From the NCBI GenBank assembly GCA_024276015.1, contig JAJRXZ010000004.1:20216-84215 (forward strand): a DNA stretch of 64,000 bases, read 5' to 3'. Under the pieces are notes generated by a model. That model saw nothing but the letters and a program-made list of their open reading frames with translations, had not been told where the DNA came from and made no database searches. Source of the DNA: Spirochaetota bacterium (GTDB lineage: Bacteria; Spirochaetota; UBA4802; UBA5550). How positions within the stretch are numbered: position 1 is the stretch's first letter; the number at the start of each line of letters is the position of its first letter. This document shows, one piece after another, positions 6,866 to 62,866 of the stretch. The position numbers and the translations under genes are program-made.

Positions 6866-7336
6866 TTAATCGAAAAATTTTCCATCATACATCAGAGCGG
6901 TCTCTTTGCAGTTGTCTTTATTTTTACATTTACTGCAGTCTTTCCATATTTTTTCAGGCAGAGAATCTTTTGGGACTTCCAGAAAACCGTTCTTTTTAAA
7001 AAAGTCCGGAATATATGTCAGTGTGAAGATTTTTGAATTTTCAAGACCGGAAATTTTTTTTATTAATGCTTCCAGAAGCAATGACCCGATCCCGTTTCTC
7101 AATTCGCTTTTTATAACGCTCAGCGACCTGATCTCTTTTAAATTAGGCCCGTAATCATAAAATGATATAACCCCGATGGTTTGCTTGTCTCTTTTGGCAA
7201 TCAGAAATTTATCGATTGATCCGGTAATATCGTCTATACTCCTCTCCAGAATGATCTCTTCATCTGAGTAAATTTTAATTATGCTATAAATTGATAATGC
7301 GTCGCTTATGTCCGGTTCGATAATTTCTGGTTTCAT
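6866..7336 (-). CDS. GNAT family N-acetyltransferase (ArgA-like short form)
   Basis: Acetyl-CoA-binding-like motif RNGIGSLLLEALIKK. C-terminal Cys cluster CSKCKNKDNC, as seen in COG1246-type proteins. Confidence 0.7.
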   Translation of the reverse strand: MKPEIIEPDISDALSIYSIIKIYSDEEIILERSIDDITGSIDKFLIAKRDKQTIGVISFYDYGPNLKEIRSLSVIKSELRNGIGSLLLEALIKKISGLENSKIFTLTYIPDFFKKNGFLEVPKDSLPEKIWKDCSKCKNKDNCKETALMYDGKFFD

Positions 7337-7458
7337 AATAAAATTATATTAAATATAGTTTATGTAATCAATACCGGGTGGGTATGATGCTGCGCCAATG
7401 GGCTGCAAAAACTCTCCTTGCAAAGGCTGTATCGTAAAAAAGTCCGGGATACGATTGT

Positions 7459-8043
7459 TTACTTCCTTTTTAAAATTTTAATATTTGATGCAAGTAGGTT
7501 TTTCGAATAGACACTGAATTTTTTTAATATTATTTCCGCTTCTTTCTGATTTTTATAGGGACCGGTAAAGATCTGGAATTGGTCTCTGTCTCTTGATAAG
7601 ATTACAGTGTGGCCTTTATTACTGAGAAAGTCTGCAATTTTTTGCGATTTATTGCTGCTGAATCCATTGCCGATCTTTATTACAAAGGGGTATTCTTCTT
7701 TCGGAAAAGAGGCGCTCTTGAATTTTTCAACATTTTTATTTCTGTTGAATATATTTGTTACTTTTGATCTTATTCCGGAAACAGCTTTAAATGTTTTTTC
7801 ATCAACAATTTTCCTGTTTGATCCTCCGGCAAATTTTATTCCTATAACAATTCCGGTTGTAAAAGATATTATGCAGAGTGCTGCAATAACAAAAATTACT
7901 CTGCTTGCATGTTTCTTCTTTCTTGCTTCTTCTTTATAATGAAATTTTGACATTCTTGAGAAATATTCGGGGTCATTTCTATTAATCTGGTGAGGATTCT
8001 CCCTTATGTTTTTCCCATTATAAAAATCAATATTTTGCATCAT
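7459..8043 (-). CDS. SPOR domain-containing membrane protein
   Basis: One TM (VIFVIAALCIISFTTGIVIGI). C-terminal SPOR-like FVIKIGNGFSSNKSQKIADFLSNKGHTVIL...FQIFTGPYKNQKEAEIILKKF. Confidence 0.75.
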   Translation of the reverse strand: MMQNIDFYNGKNIRENPHQINRNDPEYFSRMSKFHYKEEARKKKHASRVIFVIAALCIISFTTGIVIGIKFAGGSNRKIVDEKTFKAVSGIRSKVTNIFNRNKNVEKFKSASFPKEEYPFVIKIGNGFSSNKSQKIADFLSNKGHTVILSRDRDQFQIFTGPYKNQKEAEIILKKFSVYSKNLLASNIKILKRK

Positions 8044-8171
8044 ATTGCCCCTGTCCCAGTCAGATTTTGCAGTTAAAATTTATTAATATATAATTAACCC
8101 GGTAATAATTTATTTTTCGACAGGAAAGTTTTAAATCATAAGAAAAAAGTGAATTTATGATTATAATGATA

Positions 8172-8460
8172 CATGAGGGCTGGCGGGAACCTCCTTTCTC
8201 TTTCCAGACAGTAAATCCTCTGCAAAAAGAAGCGAAAAGCCGAGGCCGATTTTTTAACATCCATGTCAAAATCGGCATTACCGGCATTCTGCCGGTAAGA
8301 CTGTTTGAGCCTGAAATGAAGAGCAAGTTCTGCGCCGAACAGGATGTTCAAGTGCCGCGGTGTGCACGGATGCACATGAACTGCGGCCAGGCTTTTGAGC
8401 TTTTTTGCAGAGGAAATCGGGATAAATCCTATCTTCGGAGGCAAATTTTCTCCTCTGATG
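8172..8460. ncRNA. candidate structured non-coding RNA, family not identified (weak hint for the minus strand)
   Basis: GC-rich island inside otherwise AT-rich spacers, open in frames on both strands with no protein signal. Nested helices: 8217-8228/8402-8413 (12 bp), 8235-8241/8390-8396 (7 bp), 8245-8253/8268-8276 (9 bp), 8278-8286/8290-8298 (9 bp), and 8361-8366/8371-8376 inside 8354-8358/8383-8387. Confidence 0.4.
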
Positions 8461-8463
8461 AAT

Positions 8464-9627
8464 CTAAATAACACGTACCATAATAATATCGTTTATCTGT
8501 TTCAGCTCATTTACCGTGTCCTCGTCAATATCTCCGTCAATATCAATAATATTGTATGCATAATTGTCTTTGCTTTTATTGAGCAGATAGGCAATATTAA
8601 TATTATGTCCGGCAAGAACATTTGAGATCTGTCCGATCATATTGGGAACATTTTTATTTGCAATTGTTATTCTTTTCATCCCGGAGTAGGGAAGAACGCA
8701 GTCAGGAAAGTTTACGGAATTTGAGATATTTCCATGTTCCAGGTAATCCATGATCTCCATAACAGCCATTTTTGCGCAATTCTCTTCGGATTCCGGTGTT
8801 GATGCTCCGAGATGGGGTATGGGGATAACATTATCGATGTTGAGAAGCTCCTCTTCAGGGAAATCCGTAACATACATGGCAACTTTTTCTTCATTTATTG
8901 CAGCAATGAGATCCTTGTTGTTTACCAGTCCCCCCCTTGCAAAATTGAGTATGCGTATCCCCTTTTTCATAATATTAAATTTGTTCTTATTGATTATGCC
9001 TTTGGTCTCGTCATTAAGGGGGATATGCAGGCTGATATAGTCCGATTCGGCAAGGATACTATCAAGACTGATAGCTTTTTTTATTGCTCTTGAAAGACCC
9101 CATGCTGATTCAACGGAAATAAAGGGGTCAAATCCGGCAACATCCATGCCCAGTGCATGGGCATCGTTTGCTACCATTACGCCAATGGCGCCAAGGCCCA
9201 CAACGCCCAGTTTTTTGCCTTTAATTTCCGGACCTTTGAAATTTGCTTTATTGCTCTCAATTAGTTTGGGGATTGTATCACCCTGTCCTGCAAGGGATTT
9301 AGCCCATGTAATTCCTCTGAATATCTTTCTTGATGATATTAAAAGTCCCAGCAAAACAAGTTCCTTAACGGCATTGGCATTTGCGCCTGGAGTATTAAAC
9401 ACAACAATTCCCTTTTCAGAGCAGGCTTCGACAGGAATATTGTTAACCCCTGCGCCTGCTCTTGCAATTGCTTTCAATGAATGGGGCAGTTCCATATTGT
9501 GCATATCTGTGCTTCTGACAATTATAGCATCCGGATTAATTATCTCAGTTGCATATTCATATTTCTCAGTTGGAAATAATTTCAATCCTTCCGATGATAT
9601 TTTATTTAATTTCTGAATTTTATACAT
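8464..9627 (-). CDS. serA: D-3-phosphoglycerate dehydrogenase with a C-terminal ACT domain
   Basis: 387 aa with a 2-hydroxyacid dehydrogenase NAD-binding motif GVVGLGAIGVMVA, catalytic-region LNFARGGLV, and an ACT-like tail. Confidence 0.9.
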   Translation of the reverse strand: MYKIQKLNKISSEGLKLFPTEKYEYATEIINPDAIIVRSTDMHNMELPHSLKAIARAGAGVNNIPVEACSEKGIVVFNTPGANANAVKELVLLGLLISSRKIFRGITWAKSLAGQGDTIPKLIESNKANFKGPEIKGKKLGVVGLGAIGVMVANDAHALGMDVAGFDPFISVESAWGLSRAIKKAISLDSILAESDYISLHIPLNDETKGIINKNKFNIMKKGIRILNFARGGLVNNKDLIAAINEEKVAMYVTDFPEEELLNIDNVIPIPHLGASTPESEENCAKMAVMEIMDYLEHGNISNSVNFPDCVLPYSGMKRITIANKNVPNMIGQISNVLAGHNINIAYLLNKSKDNYAYNIIDIDGDIDEDTVNELKQINDIIMVRVI

Positions 9628-9638
9628 TCTTAAGCTAC

Positions 9639-10721
9639 TTAGCTGTTCTCTTTTTCAAAGGTTTTCATAAATTCAATAAGTTTTTGTACGCCTTCAACAG
9701 GCATTGCATTATATATACTGGCTCTCATACCTCCTACGGATCTGTGGCCTTTCAATGTAACTAACCCTTCCTGAGCGGCCTCTTTAATAAATTTTGCGTC
9801 AAGTTCGTCAGAACCTGTAATAAATGGTATGTTCATGAGAGACCTGTATTTTTTCTCAACAGTTGATTTGAACATTTTTGAATTGTCGAGGTGATCGTAT
9901 AAAAGTTCCGCTTTGTACGAATTGATTTTTTCAATTTCAGCGAGCCCTCCCTTTTTCTTTATCATTTCAAAGACAAGTTTCGCAATATATATGCAATATG
10001 TGGGGGGGGTATTGAACATTGAGTTATTGTCAGCGTGAGTCTTGTAATTAAACATAGTGGGAGTTATATCCATGGCATTCCCGATCAGGTCATCCCTGAT
10101 TATTACAATAGTTAGACCGGCAGGCCCTATATTTTTTTGAGCGCCTGCAAAAATAATTCCGAATCTATTTAGATCAACAGGTTCCGAAAGAATATTTGAC
10201 GACATATCTGCAACAAGGGGTACGTCTCCGGTATGGGGCAGTTCTCTGTAGCGTGTGCCGTATATTGTATTATTTGTGCAAATGTAAAAATAATCCGCTT
10301 CAGAGTCAAATTTGCTTTTATCAAGTTCGGGTATGTATGAAAAGTTTCTGTCTTCAGATGATGCAACAATATTGACCCTGCCGTAGCGTTTTGCTTCGGA
10401 GATGGCTTTTTTTGTCCAGTTTCCGGTATGTATCAGGTCGCACTTTTTGCTTTTATTAAAGAGATTCATGGGAACCATTGCAAACTGGCTTGACGCTCCT
10501 CCCTGAAGAAAGAGGACTTTATAATTTTCAGGGATGTTCATGATCTCCCTGAGCAGCGATTCGGTTTCATTGAATATTTCAATGAATTCGGCGGATCTGT
10601 GACTCATCTCCATCACCGACATTCCCGTATCCCTGTACTCCGGTAATTCCTCTGCGGCTTTTTTCAGAACTTCTTCCGGTAGAGCTGCGGGCCCCGCGGA
10701 AAAATTGTAAACCCTTGACAT
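9639..10721 (-). CDS. serC: phosphoserine aminotransferase
   Basis: 360 aa. N-terminus YNFSAGPAALPEEVL and the overall class-V aminotransferase pattern. It ends 11 nt upstream of serA. Confidence 0.92.
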   Translation of the reverse strand: MSRVYNFSAGPAALPEEVLKKAAEELPEYRDTGMSVMEMSHRSAEFIEIFNETESLLREIMNIPENYKVLFLQGGASSQFAMVPMNLFNKSKKCDLIHTGNWTKKAISEAKRYGRVNIVASSEDRNFSYIPELDKSKFDSEADYFYICTNNTIYGTRYRELPHTGDVPLVADMSSNILSEPVDLNRFGIIFAGAQKNIGPAGLTIVIIRDDLIGNAMDITPTMFNYKTHADNNSMFNTPPTYCIYIAKLVFEMIKKKGGLAEIEKINSYKAELLYDHLDNSKMFKSTVEKKYRSLMNIPFITGSDELDAKFIKEAAQEGLVTLKGHRSVGGMRASIYNAMPVEGVQKLIEFMKTFEKENS

Positions 10722-10764: not shown

Positions 10765-11448
10765 TCATAGATCATTATGATTTTTAATTGATGTATTTGC
10801 TGCGAACATTGCCGAGAGGAATCGAAATTCGCCGGCAATATCGAAATTCGTTATAAAAACATCCTTCACTCTGTTACTCAGAACAATCGGTGAAAAATTT
10901 ACAATCCCTTTTATGCCATAGTTGATAAGATTGTCTGCCATTTTTTTTGCGGATCGGCCCGGTACCGTAAGAACAGCCAGTTCGATTTTTTCTCTCTTGA
11001 TAATTTCAGGCAATTCATATGTTGGGTATAATGGTATGTCGGTTTTAACGGTTTCCAGTCTGTTAATGCTTGAATCGAATCCTGCAACTATTTTGAAATT
11101 CTGAGTAAGCAGATCTTTATAATTCAGCAGAGTTGTTCCCAGTTTACCGATTCCCACAATGCATGCATTTCTTACAACATCGAATCCGAAGGCGGAATTA
11201 ATATGGTTTTTAAGCTCTTTTATATCATAACCTGCTCCGATCCCTCCCCCTTTTTTGAGATATGATATATCCTTGCGGATACTATGGGAAGGGACGCCGA
11301 TCCTTCTGCCTATCTCTTTTGAAGAGATTGAGATATCGCCGGTTTTTTCTATCTCATCCAGAAGGCTGTATATTTTGCACAACCTTCTGACAGAAGGCGG
11401 CGGGATTTTTTTCAATTTTTTATTTCCGGATAAATGGATTTTCATCAT
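10765..11448 (-). CDS. rex: redox-sensing transcriptional repressor Rex
   Basis: IPPPSVRRLCKIYSLL...SSKEIGRRIGVPSHSIRKDISYL (wHTH) plus Rossmann motif CIVGIGKLGTTLLNY. I chose the ATGATG start at 11448 because the longer track ORF (to 11472) would run into a Rex box. Confidence 0.88.
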   Translation of the reverse strand: MMKIHLSGNKKLKKIPPPSVRRLCKIYSLLDEIEKTGDISISSKEIGRRIGVPSHSIRKDISYLKKGGGIGAGYDIKELKNHINSAFGFDVVRNACIVGIGKLGTTLLNYKDLLTQNFKIVAGFDSSINRLETVKTDIPLYPTYELPEIIKREKIELAVLTVPGRSAKKMADNLINYGIKGIVNFSPIVLSNRVKDVFITNFDIAGEFRFLSAMFAANTSIKNHNDL

Positions 11449-11456
11449 AGGTACAA

Positions 11457-11474
11457 TTGTGAAATAAATCACAA
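11457..11474. promoter_or_regulatory. Rex operator (ROP) box 1
   Basis: TTGTGAAATAAATCACAA is a near-perfect match to the known Rex palindrome TTGTGAA-N4-TTCACAA. It lies 9 nt upstream of the rex start. Confidence 0.8.
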
Positions 11475-11540: not shown

Positions 11541-11558
11541 GTGTGATATATTTCACAA
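11541..11558. promoter_or_regulatory. Rex operator (ROP) box 2
   Basis: GTGTGATATATTTCACAA. The right half is perfect and the left half has 2 mismatches. It lies 120 nt upstream of the DUF1015 start. Confidence 0.65.
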
Positions 11559-32377: not shown

Positions 32378-32938
32378 TTACCCTTTGATCTTTACCGGAA
32401 TACCGGAAATCATCAGATAAACTTCGTCGGCGCTTTGCGCAACCGTCTGGTTGGACCTGCCTGCAACATCTCTGAAGTATCTGCCCAGCGGTGCTGCAGG
32501 AACAATGCTCATGCCCACTTCATTGGAAACAATTATAGTTTTCCCTTTAAACTTTTTTGCAGATATAATGATATTCTGTATTTCCGATTCTATTATTTTT
32601 TCGGTTTTTTTTGCGGATTCGGAATTTATGTTTTCCTCTTCCATGCCATTCTCAATGATCATGAGGTTTGAGATCATAATGGTTAAGCAGTCTAATAAAA
32701 TATAACCTGTATTTTCATCAGCCTTCGAGATAATAGAAGCGATGTTTTTGTAGGACTCAAATGTCTGCCAGTTACTGTTTCTTCTTGATCTGTGTATTTT
32801 TATTCTCTCTTTCATCTCTTCGTCAAAGGGTATGGCAGTTGCAATATATACGACATTATCATGCGCATTTAACATACTTTCGGCAAAGGTGCTTTTCCCG
32901 CTTCTTGCTCCGCCTGTAATGAATACTATTTTGCCCAT
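32378..32938 (-). CDS. cobU: adenosylcobinamide kinase / adenosylcobinamide-phosphate guanylyltransferase
   Basis: P-loop FITGGARSGKS and YIATA...H motifs. First gene after the B12 riboswitch. Confidence 0.9.
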   Translation of the reverse strand: MGKIVFITGGARSGKSTFAESMLNAHDNVVYIATAIPFDEEMKERIKIHRSRRNSNWQTFESYKNIASIISKADENTGYILLDCLTIMISNLMIIENGMEEENINSESAKKTEKIIESEIQNIIISAKKFKGKTIIVSNEVGMSIVPAAPLGRYFRDVAGRSNQTVAQSADEVYLMISGIPVKIKG

Positions 32939-38099: not shown

Positions 38100-39512
38100 A
38101 TGGCTAAACAAAACAGAGCTCTTCTGGTTGAAGGCAAAATAGGCAAAACTCTTTTTTATATGTCACTGCCCATGATTGTTGGAATTATAGGCATGGTATT
38201 ATTTAATCTTGTTGATACATATTTTGTGGGACGTCTCGGTGCGGATGAACTTGCTGCAATCAGTTTTACATTTCCAGTGATTTTTTTGATCGGCAGTATT
38301 ACAATGGGACTGGGAATAGGAACATCGTCGGTAATATCCAGGGCTATCGGCGAAGGGAATAACTATAAGGTTCAGCGTTTGACAACAGATTCAATAATTC
38401 TTTCAATTATTCTATCGGCAATATTTCTTCTGGCCGGTCTGTTAACCATCAGGCCGCTTTTCAGGCTGATGGGAGCAACTTCTGAAGTTTTGCCGCTGAT
38501 TGAAGAGTATATGTCTATATGGTATCTTGGTATGCCCTTTGTAATTATTCCAATGGTAGGGAATAATGCCATCAGGGCAACCGGGGATACTAAGACTCCC
38601 GCATTAATAATGTTTACAGCAATTGTTGTAAATATTACTCTCGATCCTCTGCTGATATTCGGGCCGGGCCCTTTCCCGAGGCTGGAACTGAAAGGAGCCG
38701 CTATAGCAACGGTTATTGCAAGAGCCGTAACCATGATAGTTGCATTTTATGTACTCTATAGAAGGGATAAAATGGTTACCTTTGCAAAACCTGAAATAAA
38801 GGATGTTATGGGCTCATGGAAAAAGATATTGTATATAGGTCTCCCCGCAGCCGGTACAAATCTTATAATACCTCTTTCGATCGGTATTATTACCCGTCTC
38901 ATATCGCAGTATGGAAAAAATGCTGTGGCTGCCTTTGGAGTAGGATCAAAGGTTGAGATGTTTGCAATGGCTGTTATTATGGCTCTCTCTTCTGTTCTTG
39001 CTCCCTTTGTGGGTCAGAACTGGGGCGCTGAAAAGATCGGAAGGATCAACAGGGGGATTCGCATAAGTCAGTTTTTTTCTTTGATCTGGGGGGTGGCGCT
39101 TTTTTTTCTTTTTCTGTTTATGTCGGACCGGATAGCCGGTATTTTTAATGACAATGTTGAAATTGTAAATTTAACGTCGCTCTATTTGATCATTCTCTCT
39201 GTCAGCTACGGATTTCAGGGTGTCCTGAGATTGTCAGGATCTGCATTGAATGCGCTGAATAAACCTCTGCCCTCTGCGGCGCTGTCCATTCTGCAGATGT
39301 TTGTACTTTATATCCCTCTGGCTTTGATCGGATCAAAGATGACAGGTATTAAAGGTATTTTCGCAGCAGGGGCAATTGCAAATATTGCTGCCGGGAGCGC
39401 TGCATTTTTGCTGTTAAGGCGTTTCACCACTTCAAACGGGGCGGGTGATAGGGGTGCAGATGTGATCTCTGAAGCCGATATTTTCGGCCGGAAATCGGAC
39501 GATCTTTTATAA
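38100..39512 (+). CDS. MATE family efflux transporter
   Basis: 12-TM pattern. N-terminus GKIGKTLFYMSLPMIVG...DTYFVGRLG is typical of MATE/NorM. Confidence 0.88.
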   Translation: MAKQNRALLVEGKIGKTLFYMSLPMIVGIIGMVLFNLVDTYFVGRLGADELAAISFTFPVIFLIGSITMGLGIGTSSVISRAIGEGNNYKVQRLTTDSIILSIILSAIFLLAGLLTIRPLFRLMGATSEVLPLIEEYMSIWYLGMPFVIIPMVGNNAIRATGDTKTPALIMFTAIVVNITLDPLLIFGPGPFPRLELKGAAIATVIARAVTMIVAFYVLYRRDKMVTFAKPEIKDVMGSWKKILYIGLPAAGTNLIIPLSIGIITRLISQYGKNAVAAFGVGSKVEMFAMAVIMALSSVLAPFVGQNWGAEKIGRINRGIRISQFFSLIWGVALFFLFLFMSDRIAGIFNDNVEIVNLTSLYLIILSVSYGFQGVLRLSGSALNALNKPLPSAALSILQMFVLYIPLALIGSKMTGIKGIFAAGAIANIAAGSAAFLLLRRFTTSNGAGDRGADVISEADIFGRKSDDLL

Positions 39513-40199
39513 TGCCTGCCCCTTCTTAATATGAGATATCTTTATTCTTATATTCTTTGCCCGGAACGTGATCAATTTGCTGTTTTTTATTTTCAGCAGG
39601 TCATATTCCAAAAATGTTCCGTGTCTGCTTTTCTCAGGAATAATTACGCGTAATTTCGATGTGGTGTGGATCCTTCCGATACCTTTACATACATGACACT
39701 GTGAATCCCTGCCGTAACAGATGGGGCAGTGCATTCTCGCAGGCAGTTCGATAAAGGCAATTGCCCCTGTCTGAGCTTCCTCCTCGGTAATTAATATTTC
39801 AATATCCTGTCCGATATTATTGAGTATTTCATCTCTTTTCATTTTTTTCCTGAGCAGCCGAGCCTTGAGCATTCTCTTTAATGATGTTGAGTATTTTATT
39901 CTGCTGCCCGGTATTACAGGCAGTATTTCTTTTTTGCTGTTTACCATTATTTTTTTAAATAGCTGGTTGTCATATTCCTCTCTCGAATTACTGTCGGAAA
40001 GAATTCTGTGGCCTGTTATTAAAGATTCGATCAGTTCAATAGCATTATCCGGGCTTTCTTCGGAAGTGTCAGGGTGATAACGTTTAATGAGAGTTCTGAA
40101 GGCAGAATTTATTTCATCTTTTCCCGCGTTATAGGGTACATTTAAAATGCTGTAATAATCTATGAGATTACCGTTTCTGTCGCAGAATTTATTATCCAT
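39507..40199 (-). CDS. J-domain protein with a CxxC-type zinc knuckle
   Basis: DYYSILNVPYNAGKDEINSAFRTLIKRYHPD (HPD motif). CPICYGRDSQCHVCKGIG. I prefer the ATG at 40199 over 40241. Confidence 0.75.
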   Translation of the reverse strand: MDNKFCDRNGNLIDYYSILNVPYNAGKDEINSAFRTLIKRYHPDTSEESPDNAIELIESLITGHRILSDSNSREEYDNQLFKKIMVNSKKEILPVIPGSRIKYSTSLKRMLKARLLRKKMKRDEILNNIGQDIEILITEEEAQTGAIAFIELPARMHCPICYGRDSQCHVCKGIGRIHTTSKLRVIIPEKSRHGTFLEYDLLKIKNSKLITFRAKNIRIKISHIKKGQAL

Positions 40200-40204
40200 A
40201 GTAA

Positions 40205-40606
40205 TCAATATAATGTAATGTAAGGTTTTAGTAAACAGCAAAAAAAGTATAATTTAATATTTTCGTCTGGAATATATTGGGTCATGCATATTACACGGTG
40301 GGCAACTTCAAAATAGTCGCCCGAACCTCCCATTACAAGAATTGACGATATTCCCAAATCGGTATAGAGCTGTTTGATTTTATCTATACTGCTTTTTGAA
40401 GAGAATGTCTCTTCGGGGAATTTAGACAGTTTCTGTGAAACTCTGACTCTGATCCGGCTGGGAGTTGCAAAGGGGTCCCCCTGAACATGGTCAATATACA
40501 GTGTAAAGAATTCATCACGGTAAGTATCTTTAATGTTTTTGTATGCTTTATAGCTGCGGTTATTAATTTTTAATATTGTTGATTTTAATTCGTCAAAGCG
40601 TTTCAT
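40205..40606 (-). pseudogene. remnant of a COG3044/PF09818-type predicted ABC-class ATPase with a large internal deletion
   Basis: The N-terminal segment (SYKAYKNIKDTYRDEFFTLYIDHVQGDPFATPSRIRVRV) is joined directly to a C-terminal segment (GISSILVMGGSGDYFEVAHRVICM). The Walker A core of a protein that is normally about 550 aa is missing. Confidence 0.6.
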
Positions 40607-60868: not shown

Positions 60869-62866
60869 ATGTTCGAAAAAATATTAATTGCCAACCGAGG
60901 TGAAATCGCCTGCCGCATTATTCGTACTGCAAAAAGACTTGGAATCGGAACAGTTGCCGTTTATTCCGATGCTGATGCCTCTTCAATGCATGCTGAGCTT
61001 GCTGACGAGGCCTGCCATATAGGACCTTCTCCGGCAAGGGAAAGTTATCTCAGAGCCGATCTTCTTATAGAGGCTGCCCTGAAGAGCGGAGCAGAAGCAG
61101 TGCATCCCGGATACGGTTTTATGTCGGAAAATGCAGACTTTGCAGAGGCCTGCAAAAAAGCCGGGCTTATCTTTATAGGCCCTCCGGCACAGGCTATTCG
61201 CGCAATGGGATCCAAGAGCGCTGCAAAAAAAATAATGGAGAAAGCGGGCGTTCCCCTGATCCCGGGCTATCACGGCGAGAACCAAGAGCCGGAACTTCTT
61301 CGGAAAGAAGCGGAAAAAACAGGTTATCCTTTGATGATCAAAGCCGTAATGGGCGGCGGCGGTAAGGGAATGCGCATTGTAATGAAAGAAAATGATTTCA
61401 GCAGCGCTCTCACTGCTGCGAGACGAGAGGCAATGGCTTCGTTTGGTGACGAGAGTGTACTCCTCGAAAAATATATATCCGGACCGCGTCACGTTGAAAT
61501 TCAGGTTTTTGCGGATAATCACGGTAATGCAGTCTATCTTTTTGAGAGAGATTGTTCCATCCAGCGCCGTCATCAGAAGATCATTGAGGAGGCTCCGGCG
61601 CCCGGAATGACTCAAAAGTTGAGGGAAAAGATGGGGGCTGCCGCGGTTGATGCTGCAAAGGCAAGAGCTTATACAGGAGCCGGTACAGTGGAGTTTCTTC
61701 TTGATGAAAGCGGCAATTTCTATTTTATGGAAATGAACACGCGACTTCAGGTGGAACACCCCGTTACTGAAATGATCACTTCAGTTGACCTTGTAGAGTG
61801 GCAATTGCGTGTGGCTTGCGGTGAGAAGCTTCCCTGCGGGCAGGAAGACCTGCATATCAGCGGCCATGCTGTTGAGGCGCGAATTTACGCAGAGGACCCT
61901 TCGAATAGTTTTCTTCCTTCAACAGGAAAACTCTTTTATCTCAGTACACCGAAGGAAAGCGGGAATGTTCGTATTGATACTGGAATCAGAGAAGGGGATG
62001 AAGTGAGCATGGAGTATGACCCCATGATCGCAAAACTTATAGTATGGGATGTTGACAGAAGTTCCGCTGTTCGGAGGCTTCACAGAGCTCTCGGGGAATA
62101 TCATGCGGCCGGAGTAACAACCAACGTAGAATTCCTGCGGAGAGTAACGGAACATCCGCTTTTCAGTTCCGGCGGTTATGATACCGGTTTTATTGAACAG
62201 CATGAATCTGAACTTTTTCCTGCGCGGCAGAAAGCTCCGGATCGGATTTTAGCTCTTGCCGCATTGTATATTATGCTGAGCATAGCGCCGAATAGAGAGG
62301 ACTCCGATAATTCCGGCGATCCCTATTCCCCGTGGAATATGACCCACGGGTGGAGGTTGAACTGCCGGAGCTTTCACGAGATATCTTTTATTGACGGTGA
62401 TTCCGATGTTACTGTAAAAGTTCATTACAGGGAGAAGGGATATCAACTGGAACTGCCGTCAGGAGAAATGGCGGTATGGGGACGGCTGGATGGCGAAGGT
62501 ATTGTCAATGCCGATCTCGGAGGGGCATTGACAAAAGCCAGTGTTATCCGAAACGGAGCTGAGATCATATTGATGACATTGGGGGCGAGATATCGTCTTA
62601 TTCATACAGATCCCTTTGCGCAGTTTGAAGAGCAGGACGATACCGGCGGCAGTCTGACGGCTCCCATGCCCGGGAGGATTATTGAAGTTATGGTTAAGGA
62701 AGGAGACGCAGTAAAAAGAGGAGACTCCTTATTGACTATGGAAGCTATGAAAATGGAACATACAATAAAAGCCCCCGGTGACGGGAAAGTGGTGGAACTG
62801 AAATACGCCGTTGGCGATCAGGTAAACGAAGGAGAAAAACTTCTGATATTTGAGGTTAATGAATAA
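60869..62866 (+). CDS. liuD: methylcrotonyl-CoA carboxylase, biotin carboxylase/BCCP (alpha) subunit
   Basis: The ATG at 60869 gives MFEKILIANRGEIACRIIRT. ATP-grasp. C-terminal biotinylation motif EAMKMEH. The track ORF start at 60779 is an upstream extension. Confidence 0.9.
   Translation: MFEKILIANRGEIACRIIRTAKRLGIGTVAVYSDADASSMHAELADEACHIGPSPARESYLRADLLIEAALKSGAEAVHPGYGFMSENADFAEACKKAGLIFIGPPAQAIRAMGSKSAAKKIMEKAGVPLIPGYHGENQEPELLRKEAEKTGYPLMIKAVMGGGGKGMRIVMKENDFSSALTAARREAMASFGDESVLLEKYISGPRHVEIQVFADNHGNAVYLFERDCSIQRRHQKIIEEAPAPGMTQKLREKMGAAAVDAAKARAYTGAGTVEFLLDESGNFYFMEMNTRLQVEHPVTEMITSVDLVEWQLRVACGEKLPCGQEDLHISGHAVEARIYAEDPSNSFLPSTGKLFYLSTPKESGNVRIDTGIREGDEVSMEYDPMIAKLIVWDVDRSSAVRRLHRALGEYHAAGVTTNVEFLRRVTEHPLFSSGGYDTGFIEQHESELFPARQKAPDRILALAALYIMLSIAPNREDSDNSGDPYSPWNMTHGWRLNCRSFHEISFIDGDSDVTVKVHYREKGYQLELPSGEMAVWGRLDGEGIVNADLGGALTKASVIRNGAEIILMTLGARYRLIHTDPFAQFEEQDDTGGSLTAPMPGRIIEVMVKEGDAVKRGDSLLTMEAMKMEHTIKAPGDGKVVELKYAVGDQVNEGEKLLIFEVNE

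Follow-up and report, generated by a model that had tools for sequence, protein, structure and literature searches.

We describe a short structured island in a 64,000-nucleotide stretch of DNA from a Spirochaetota bacterium (contig JAJRXZ010000004.1, positions 20,216 to 84,215 of the forward strand), referred to below as the window. The island lies in the 420-nt spacer between serA and a weakly SPOR-like gene; it is unclassified and restricted to two genomes. Our tentative interpretation, to which we assign a probability of about 40%, is that the island forms a structured module of the serC-serA transcript, specific to its lineage, which carries a probably translated orphan open reading frame (ORF). 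As part of this interpretation, the island is best read as belonging, on the minus strand, to the rex-serC-serA transcription unit. Three findings speak for it: no intrinsic terminator lies between serA and the island; a Shine-Dalgarno-like AGAGGAG and the start codon TTG 8444 follow directly after the serA stop and open a 102-codon ORF; and the structured core is the domain conserved in the sole other genome that carries the element. The extraordinary fold and the minus-strand translation signals are two independent signals, each hard to dismiss. A plain coding sequence is insufficient because it leaves the fold unexplained, and a plain non-coding RNA is insufficient because it leaves the Shine-Dalgarno sequence, the start, the codon bias, the kept frame and the helical protein model unexplained.

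The fold of the structured core

The structured core spans 8216-8414 and forms, on both strands, a closing stem (P1 and P2) around four hairpins. In P1 the 5' arm TCCTCTGCAAAAA (8216-8228) pairs with the 3' arm TTTTTGCAGAGGA (8402-8414); the arms are 13 nt long and 100% complementary, and about 0.001 such pairs would be expected in 430 nt. P2 adds 7 bp between AAAAGCC (8235-8241) and GGCTTTT (8390-8396). Inside these, hairpin A (8245-8276) has a perfect 9-bp stem (8245-8253/8268-8276) with a 14-nt loop, hairpin B (8278-8298) has a perfect 9-bp stem (8278-8286/8290-8298) with a 3-nt loop, hairpin C (8301-8342) is an imperfect stem-loop, and hairpin D (8352-8388) consists of GCCGC/GCGGC around TGTGCA-CGGA-TGCACA (8361-8376). 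For a region of 430 nt, P1 and each of the two perfect 9-bp hairpins greatly exceed chance expectation. All the helices named in the original prediction, which had been read directly from the sequence, were recovered at their positions, and the closing pair, given there as 12 bp, was found to be 13 bp long.

The minimum free energy (MFE) of the core is -86.8 kcal/mol on the plus strand and -82.4 kcal/mol on the minus strand. Comparison with shuffled controls, which had been proposed as a check, bore out the structure: z was -7.0 (plus) and -6.9 (minus), with 0 of 200 shuffles folding as well. The larger region 8160-8470 gave z = -5.5 and -4.5 on the two strands, respectively. Background values from 160 windows across the sequence had a mean z of -0.43 (standard deviation 1.21); of 318 coding windows taken on the sense strand, a single one was at z <= -5 and none at z <= -6, the most stable folds of this set being at about -65 kcal/mol. 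The core is the most stable 200-nt fold of the window.

The one coding window at z <= -5 (z = -5.1 to -5.4) is in the rex coding sequence (11201-11400, minus), where repeated CCTTCTG/CAGAAGG motifs produce a long closing stem around three hairpins. The Rex protein is colinear with the Rex of relatives, so that this fold is superimposed on genuine coding sequence in the island's own operon. Other well-folding coding windows were 62219-62578 (plus, z = -4.5) and 38401-38600 (plus, z = -4.4). Two further perfect long-range inverted repeats of the window, one of 15 nt with arms 286 nt apart (39930-39944/40231-40245) and one of 13 nt with arms 377 nt apart (39367-39379/39757-39769), surround ORF 39507-40241, presumably a J-domain protein from a reading by eye. 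The former was considered as a sister element of the island and rejected: the region that it encloses has a z of only -2, it crosses the start of a gene, and it shows no relation to the island.

On each strand the MFE structure and the centroid structure of the core alike are multibranch junctions, formed by the closing stem and four hairpins, with no rod. There are three G-U pairs in the plus-strand fold and five in the minus-strand fold. The original prediction had weakly favoured the minus orientation from G-U pairing, which does not agree with the slightly greater stability of the plus strand. It had also proposed a switch, in which 8408-8414 of the closing stem would pair instead with TCCTCTG (8451-8457). 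This alternative helix is at chance level: it has 7 bp, seven such pairs are present where about 5-6 are expected, and the energetic price of imposing it is +11 kcal/mol on the plus strand and +8 kcal/mol on the minus strand. A switch is therefore not supported.

Rfam 15 was searched with cmscan at 7000-9500 and 8130-8475 on both strands, using gathering thresholds and, in addition, E <= 10 with the laxest filters. No family scored better than E = 0.6 at the island, where Bacillaceae-1 ranked first with 17.9 bits (gathering score 35), and ARAGORN found no tRNA or tmRNA. The only gathering-level match in the window was the cobalamin riboswitch RF00174 (33061-33253, minus, 118 bits), which is located upstream of a minus-strand gene cluster beginning at 32938. 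Its MFE z is about -0.7, which shows that a functional RNA can be thermodynamically inconspicuous. 6S RNA accumulates as an abundant, discrete RNA of about 180-200 nt and folds into a rod whose large central bubble imitates an open promoter; a 6S-like RNA had been suggested for the island. The two are alike in their length of about 200 nt and in a long stem joining the 5' and 3' ends. They differ in that the island has no match to the RF00013 covariance model with permissive filters at E <= 10, is a four-hairpin multibranch rather than a central-bubble rod, and has an unusual gene context, and the suggestion is not supported.

The window is AT-rich (40% GC). The core has a GC content of 49.7%. 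Of all 200-nt windows 7.4% attain this value, most of them coding; it is ordinary for the coding DNA of the window, while the spacer is GC-rich relative to other spacers. It is not richer than every other spacer, as had been stated, since the spacer with the cobalamin riboswitch has the higher peak (0.553 vs 0.527).

The exceptional z-scores of the core, and a peak GC like that of the spacer with the window's only Rfam-confirmed RNA, are what would be expected of a non-coding structured RNA on either strand, the ORFs being by-products of a TA-poor, self-complementary sequence. Such an RNA could be a small RNA on the plus strand, convergent with serA, or an untranslated structured 3' untranslated region or intergenic element on the minus strand. 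For the small RNA, a promoter-like TTTGCA-17-TATAAT (8066-8094, plus; 10/12 match) could drive a plus-strand transcript through the island, and the plus strand folds slightly better; this is weak evidence, as four promoter-like sites were found where 2.6 were expected. Against a non-coding RNA stand the lack of any Rfam match whatever, the absence of a terminator-like site from either strand at 7900-8700, and main stems that are perfectly Watson-Crick and favour neither strand, which is unusual for an old RNA gene. We regard this explanation as possible though doubtful, and the ORF and the second copy, described below, bear on it further.

The candidates from screens of GC-rich intergenic regions (IGRs; PMC6429828, PMC8632094, PMC11109978) are like the island in that they are long GC-rich spacers in AT-rich genomes with extensive predicted structure. 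They were accepted on covariation across many representatives, and the screening pipeline drops spacers that overlap predicted proteins or flags small ORFs (sORFs) in them (PMC6429828, PMC8632094, PMC11109978), whereas the island has two representatives, with DNA for one. In these screens, known protein genes that had escaped annotation made up about one-third of the unknown long GC-rich IGRs, and upstream ORFs or sORFs were present in about one-quarter (PMC6429828). Since such spacers often proved to be coding, the prior does not favour RNA.

Hairpin D could alternatively be read at the DNA level, as a degenerate Rex or CRP-type box in an operator cluster downstream of the Rex-controlled rex-serC-serA genes. 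The pattern TGTG-N8-CACA occurs three times in the window against an expectation of 0.28, and the other two occurrences are at the rex promoter. The hairpin D palindrome shares this pattern and differs from the rex-promoter sites at inner positions. It matches about 10/14 of what we take to be the Rex consensus, the palindrome TTGTGAA-N4-TTCACAA, and does not have the conserved A of TGTGA. Moreover, it is positioned downstream of the operon, and an operator cluster leaves the nested 199-nt fold with its 13-bp long-range stem unexplained, so that we find it very improbable. The two palindromes at the rex promoter, TTGTGAAATAAATCACAA (11458-11473) and GTGTGATATATTTCACAA (11542-11557), are in the divergent rex/DUF1015 promoter region and look like classical Rex operators, which suggests autoregulation of rex-serC-serA. 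The listed rex ORF begins at a GTG that overlaps the first of them; alignment with the Rex of a relative (locus L001) points to a downstream ATG (MMKIHL... or MKIHL...) as the probable true start.

The minus-strand frame and its second copy

The orphan ORF (8136-8444, minus) has 102 codons; it starts at TTG 8444-8442, and its stop codon occupies 8138-8136. The spacer had earlier been described as open on both strands (8136..8474 minus and 8157..8471 plus), with no ribosome-binding site, no protein motif and no credible gene. Both open frames are present. A ribosome-binding site was overlooked on the minus strand, where AGAGGAG (8456->8450, overlapping the plus-strand TCCTCTG) begins 6-7 nt past the serA stop and stands 5 nt (AAAAT) before the in-frame TTG 8444. 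A Shine-Dalgarno match of at least 5 nt at the right distance accompanies 20% of the true starts in the window and 3.3% of all start-like triplets, which gives a likelihood ratio of about 6 for TTG 8444. The codon score of the ORF is 0.208, compared with 0.31 +/- 0.10 for true frames, 0.05 +/- 0.08 for same-phase antisense frames and 0.00 +/- 0.09 for shuffles; it is attained by 0.6% of shuffled frames (p = 0.006), or by 3.8% when the best of six frames is taken (p = 0.038). The predicted product, of 102 aa, is basic and not hydrophobic, and the AlphaFold single-sequence model is a helical hairpin with a predicted local distance difference test score (pLDDT) of 67.9 and two long helices at about 80. 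With its Shine-Dalgarno sequence and TTG, gene-like codon usage and moderately confident helical model, the ORF speaks against the absence of a credible gene, and we infer that it is probably translated into a small helical orphan protein. Accessibility of the start region (0.49, vs 0.50 +/- 0.10 at real genes) does not discriminate between the readings. Of the structured-RNA reading in the original prediction, the stable nested fold stands; clear non-coding status does not, as the fold overlaps an ORF with translation signals.

A search of 5.8 billion proteins with the minus ORF gave two matches, P0001 and P0002, from the two NCBI assemblies that annotate it. P0001 is identical to the ORF from TTG 8444, and because its 92,292-bp contig also encodes an identical SerA, we take it to be the source genome's own annotation. 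P0002, encoded on an NCBI-attributed contig of 34,161 bp, has 84% amino-acid identity in the BLASTP-aligned region and retains the minus frame over 90 codons, with no frameshift and the same start position. The existence of a protein homologue had been named as an outcome that would speak against a structured RNA. P0002 is formally such a homologue; it is also the same element, so that coding and non-coding readings stay unseparated by it.

P0002 is known as a protein only, and its nucleotide changes were deduced from the amino-acid differences. This gave 13 single-base changes, an apparent change of the start codon being excluded because any start codon is written as M. Five changes fall among about 19 visible sites in the flank 8415-8443 and six among about 133 in the core (p ~ 0.004, our Fisher estimate), making the core about six times more conserved than the N-terminal flank. 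Because the density of changes is lower in the core than in the flank, we consider the stem-closed core to be the constrained unit. The amino acids encoded across both P1 arms are identical in P0002, and most of the deduced differences are in or beside hairpin C. Six changes are at predicted paired positions, of which five preserve the pair on the plus strand and one breaks it; for the core only, two preserve and one breaks. One of them, C8240>T in the 5' arm of P2, would yield a G-U pair on the plus strand. The partners of all three core stem changes are at positions silent in the minus frame, where compensation is invisible in the P0002 protein. Below about 8175 the window and P0002 diverge, with indels.

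Several points weigh against our interpretation of the island as a module with a translated ORF. A profile search with the minus ORF against 1.84 billion representative proteins recovered only P0002, no match was found in Pfam, NCBIfam, PHROGs or PDB sequences, and Foldseek with the model returned only generic helical bundles (E >= 0.5); the earlier statement that there is no protein motif thus holds for this ORF beyond P0002. The spacer of the nearest syntenic relative (L081, see below) encodes nothing similar. In dinucleotide shuffles of the same composition one fully open frame occurs in 18%, and frames of the non-coding cobalamin riboswitch also attain codon scores of about 0.17. No ordinary coding window is nearly as structured as the core. 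Towards the start codon, conservation falls off 3 nt past the closing stem, the first change being at 8417; on the opposite side it extends to about 8175, and the C-terminal tail of the ORF is not conserved in P0002. Most of the 13 replacements in P0002 are radical (R>G, S>F, Y>C, G>R, K>E, and R>M twice). Radical replacements and an unconserved tail would fit selection on nucleic acid over selection on protein, a weak argument.

A non-coding RNA would account for an orphan ORF with radical substitutions, for conservation centred on the stem-closed core, and for the five of six paired-position changes that keep plus-strand pairing through G-C to G-U or similar exchanges; the frequency of single open frames among shuffles is also in its favour. 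On the other hand, two open frames occur in only 1.2% of shuffles, and the Shine-Dalgarno sequence, the TTG, the codon bias and the helical model would all have to be coincidence. Since all three visible core stem changes have partners at silent positions, no covariation is observable, and such an RNA would be known from just two genomes.

The second open frame, a plus-strand ORF of 104 aa (8157-8471), could in turn be a protein-coding gene convergent with serA. Its frame is open, the promoter-like site lies upstream, and 8 of the 13 P0002 differences would be synonymous in it. This synonymous excess is largely an ascertainment effect, since only changes visible in the minus frame can be observed and about half would be synonymous anyway; for transitions it amounts to 8 of 11 (our binomial estimate against 50%, p ~ 0.11). 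The ORF is without a Shine-Dalgarno sequence, its codon score, of the kind usual for antisense shadows, does not come up to the score of the minus frame, and its AlphaFold pLDDT is 34.3. It has no homologue in the protein collection and no family match, in line with the original prediction, which had seen no protein motif, and its start region falls in the part not conserved in P0002. A plus-strand gene is the least probable of the explanations that we considered.

Distribution and resemblance to repeat elements

No second copy of the element was found in the window with blastn, nhmmer or a covariance model of the core run with filters off, and the covariance model detected no copy in 31 other loci. 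None of the SerA-anchored loci from 80 genomes (the best SerA among the matches listed being 68% identical) carries the element, and by blastn, nhmmer and tblastn it is absent from every relative locus fetched; the homologous spacers that the original prediction had proposed to compare were not encountered there. One nhmmer match in L001 (E = 0.03) was dismissed as chance, its position being the 5' end of a 392-aa gene that is unrelated. Pattern scans with the minus ORF detected no relative in JGI metagenomes or IMG/VR, and blastn gave no match in plasmid and phage collections. Only two variants of the ORF are present among about 15 billion proteins.

The nearest syntenic relative, L081 (ENA ERZ27247960; SerA 76%), keeps the order serC-serA-spacer-SPOR. 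Its serA is followed by a canonical intrinsic terminator, AAATAGCCGGTTTTATGAAAGCCGGCTATTTATT (L081 3058-3090), whereas the window has no terminator after serA. The L081 spacer, of 467 nt, has no similarity to the island and is unstructured (z = +1.4). In the close SerA relatives L082-L086 serA has other neighbours, and a SPOR-anchored metagenome scan yielded only L087, with a different upstream gene. SerA matches in genomes were to Spirochaetes metagenome-assembled genomes at 68% identity or below (best among the matches listed), and in the protein collection the next match after the window's own copy was at 76% or below; by SerA similarity the window thus derives from an uncultured Spirochaetota-like bacterium. 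From these identities it would appear that the second copy either is not beside a closely related full-length serA or is beside one that is truncated; the E-value cut-off of the SerA search would have hidden a SerA fragment.

This patchy distribution raises the possibility that a selfish palindromic DNA element, or the relic of one, was inserted in this lineage between serA and the SPOR gene; it would be of the miniature inverted-repeat transposable element (MITE) type or the enterobacterial type of repetitive extragenic palindromes (REPs) and bacterial interspersed mosaic elements (BIMEs). On this view the ORF would be either an artefact of annotation or a frame that was exapted. The perfect 13-bp terminal inverted repeats (8216-8228 and 8402-8414) around 173 bp, the perfectly Watson-Crick and strand-symmetric stems, and a GC content foreign to the neighbouring spacers are in keeping with insertion, as is absence from the L081 serA-SPOR spacer and from every other relative examined. 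P0002 is highly similar, yet the protein collection has no SerA at 77-99% identity. MITEs and in-frame palindromic elements such as the Rickettsia RPEs likewise have terminal inverted repeats, a length of about 200 bp, a strong foldback, a patchy distribution and ORF readability. They differ from the island, which has no target-site duplication (its flanks, ...GTAAA| and |AATCG..., show no direct repeat), no second copy in 64 kb and no partner transposase, and whose four nested hairpins depart from the single foldback that is usual in a MITE. Copies of the terminal repeat in the window were limited to scattered 2-mismatch matches, none of them paired. Furthermore, the island is in the middle of a 92-kb contig, the flanks beyond the inverted repeats are still homologous in P0002, the plasmid, phage and IMG/VR collections contain no match, and the two ORF variants are the only ones among the proteins searched. 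We consider an inserted element unlikely.

Operon setting and significance

All the local genes are on the minus strand. rex (10765-11472) is followed by serC (9639-10721), serA (8464-9627, stop at 8466-8464), the spacer with the island, the SPOR-like gene (7459-8043) and a GNAT acetyltransferase gene, and the order rex-serC-serA recurs in relatives. REP elements protect upstream mRNA from 3' exonucleases and uncouple downstream expression. The island resembles REPs and BIMEs in being a stable palindromic structure directly 3' of a gene, in a co-oriented cluster with no canonical terminator. Unlike REPs, which are 20-40 bp long and present in hundreds of copies, it is a single-copy 199-nt domain of four hairpins known from two genomes, and shares its sequence with an ORF that has a ribosome-binding site. 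By analogy with the extragenic palindromes of enterobacterial operons, we propose that the structured module on the serC-serA transcript could act as both an exonuclease barrier and a ribosome throttle. The structured domain would block 3'-to-5' exonucleases in cis and in this way protect the upstream serC-serA message, and it might also slow ribosomes on the minus ORF.

A related explanation is that of a dual-function locus newly arisen in one lineage, in which an RNA of about 200 nt with four hairpins is selected for its fold and is also coding. A new gene for a small helical protein may have originated on a structured or palindromic element or have become fused with one. Competition of the closing stem with the anti-Shine-Dalgarno sequence would then time translation relative to the completion of the serA transcript. 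The mRNAs of hok-type type I toxins are similar in having a small ORF inside an mRNA dominated by long-range pairing, and the anti-Shine-Dalgarno sequence of the island (8408-8414) can likewise pair with either the Shine-Dalgarno sequence or a distal partner. They are unlike it in that the island's product is 102 aa, basic and not hydrophobic, and an antisense RNA gene is not evident; moreover, the Shine-Dalgarno pairing of 7 bp is at chance level and disfavoured by 8 kcal/mol. We judge such a dual-function locus to be improbable, somewhat more so than an inserted element.

The island illustrates that an apparently gene-free, GC-rich structured region can bear good translation signals, and that structure alone is insufficient to call a non-coding RNA. 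With two known copies its current significance is limited. Should the fold prove functional, rex-serC-serA, an operon of central metabolism in an uncultured Spirochaetota-like bacterium, would have attached to it a structured element that is specific to the lineage and not yet described. Translation of the ORF as well would make the island a clear instance of a young orphan gene founded on a nested palindrome, with a bearing on the origin of new genes and new RNA structures.

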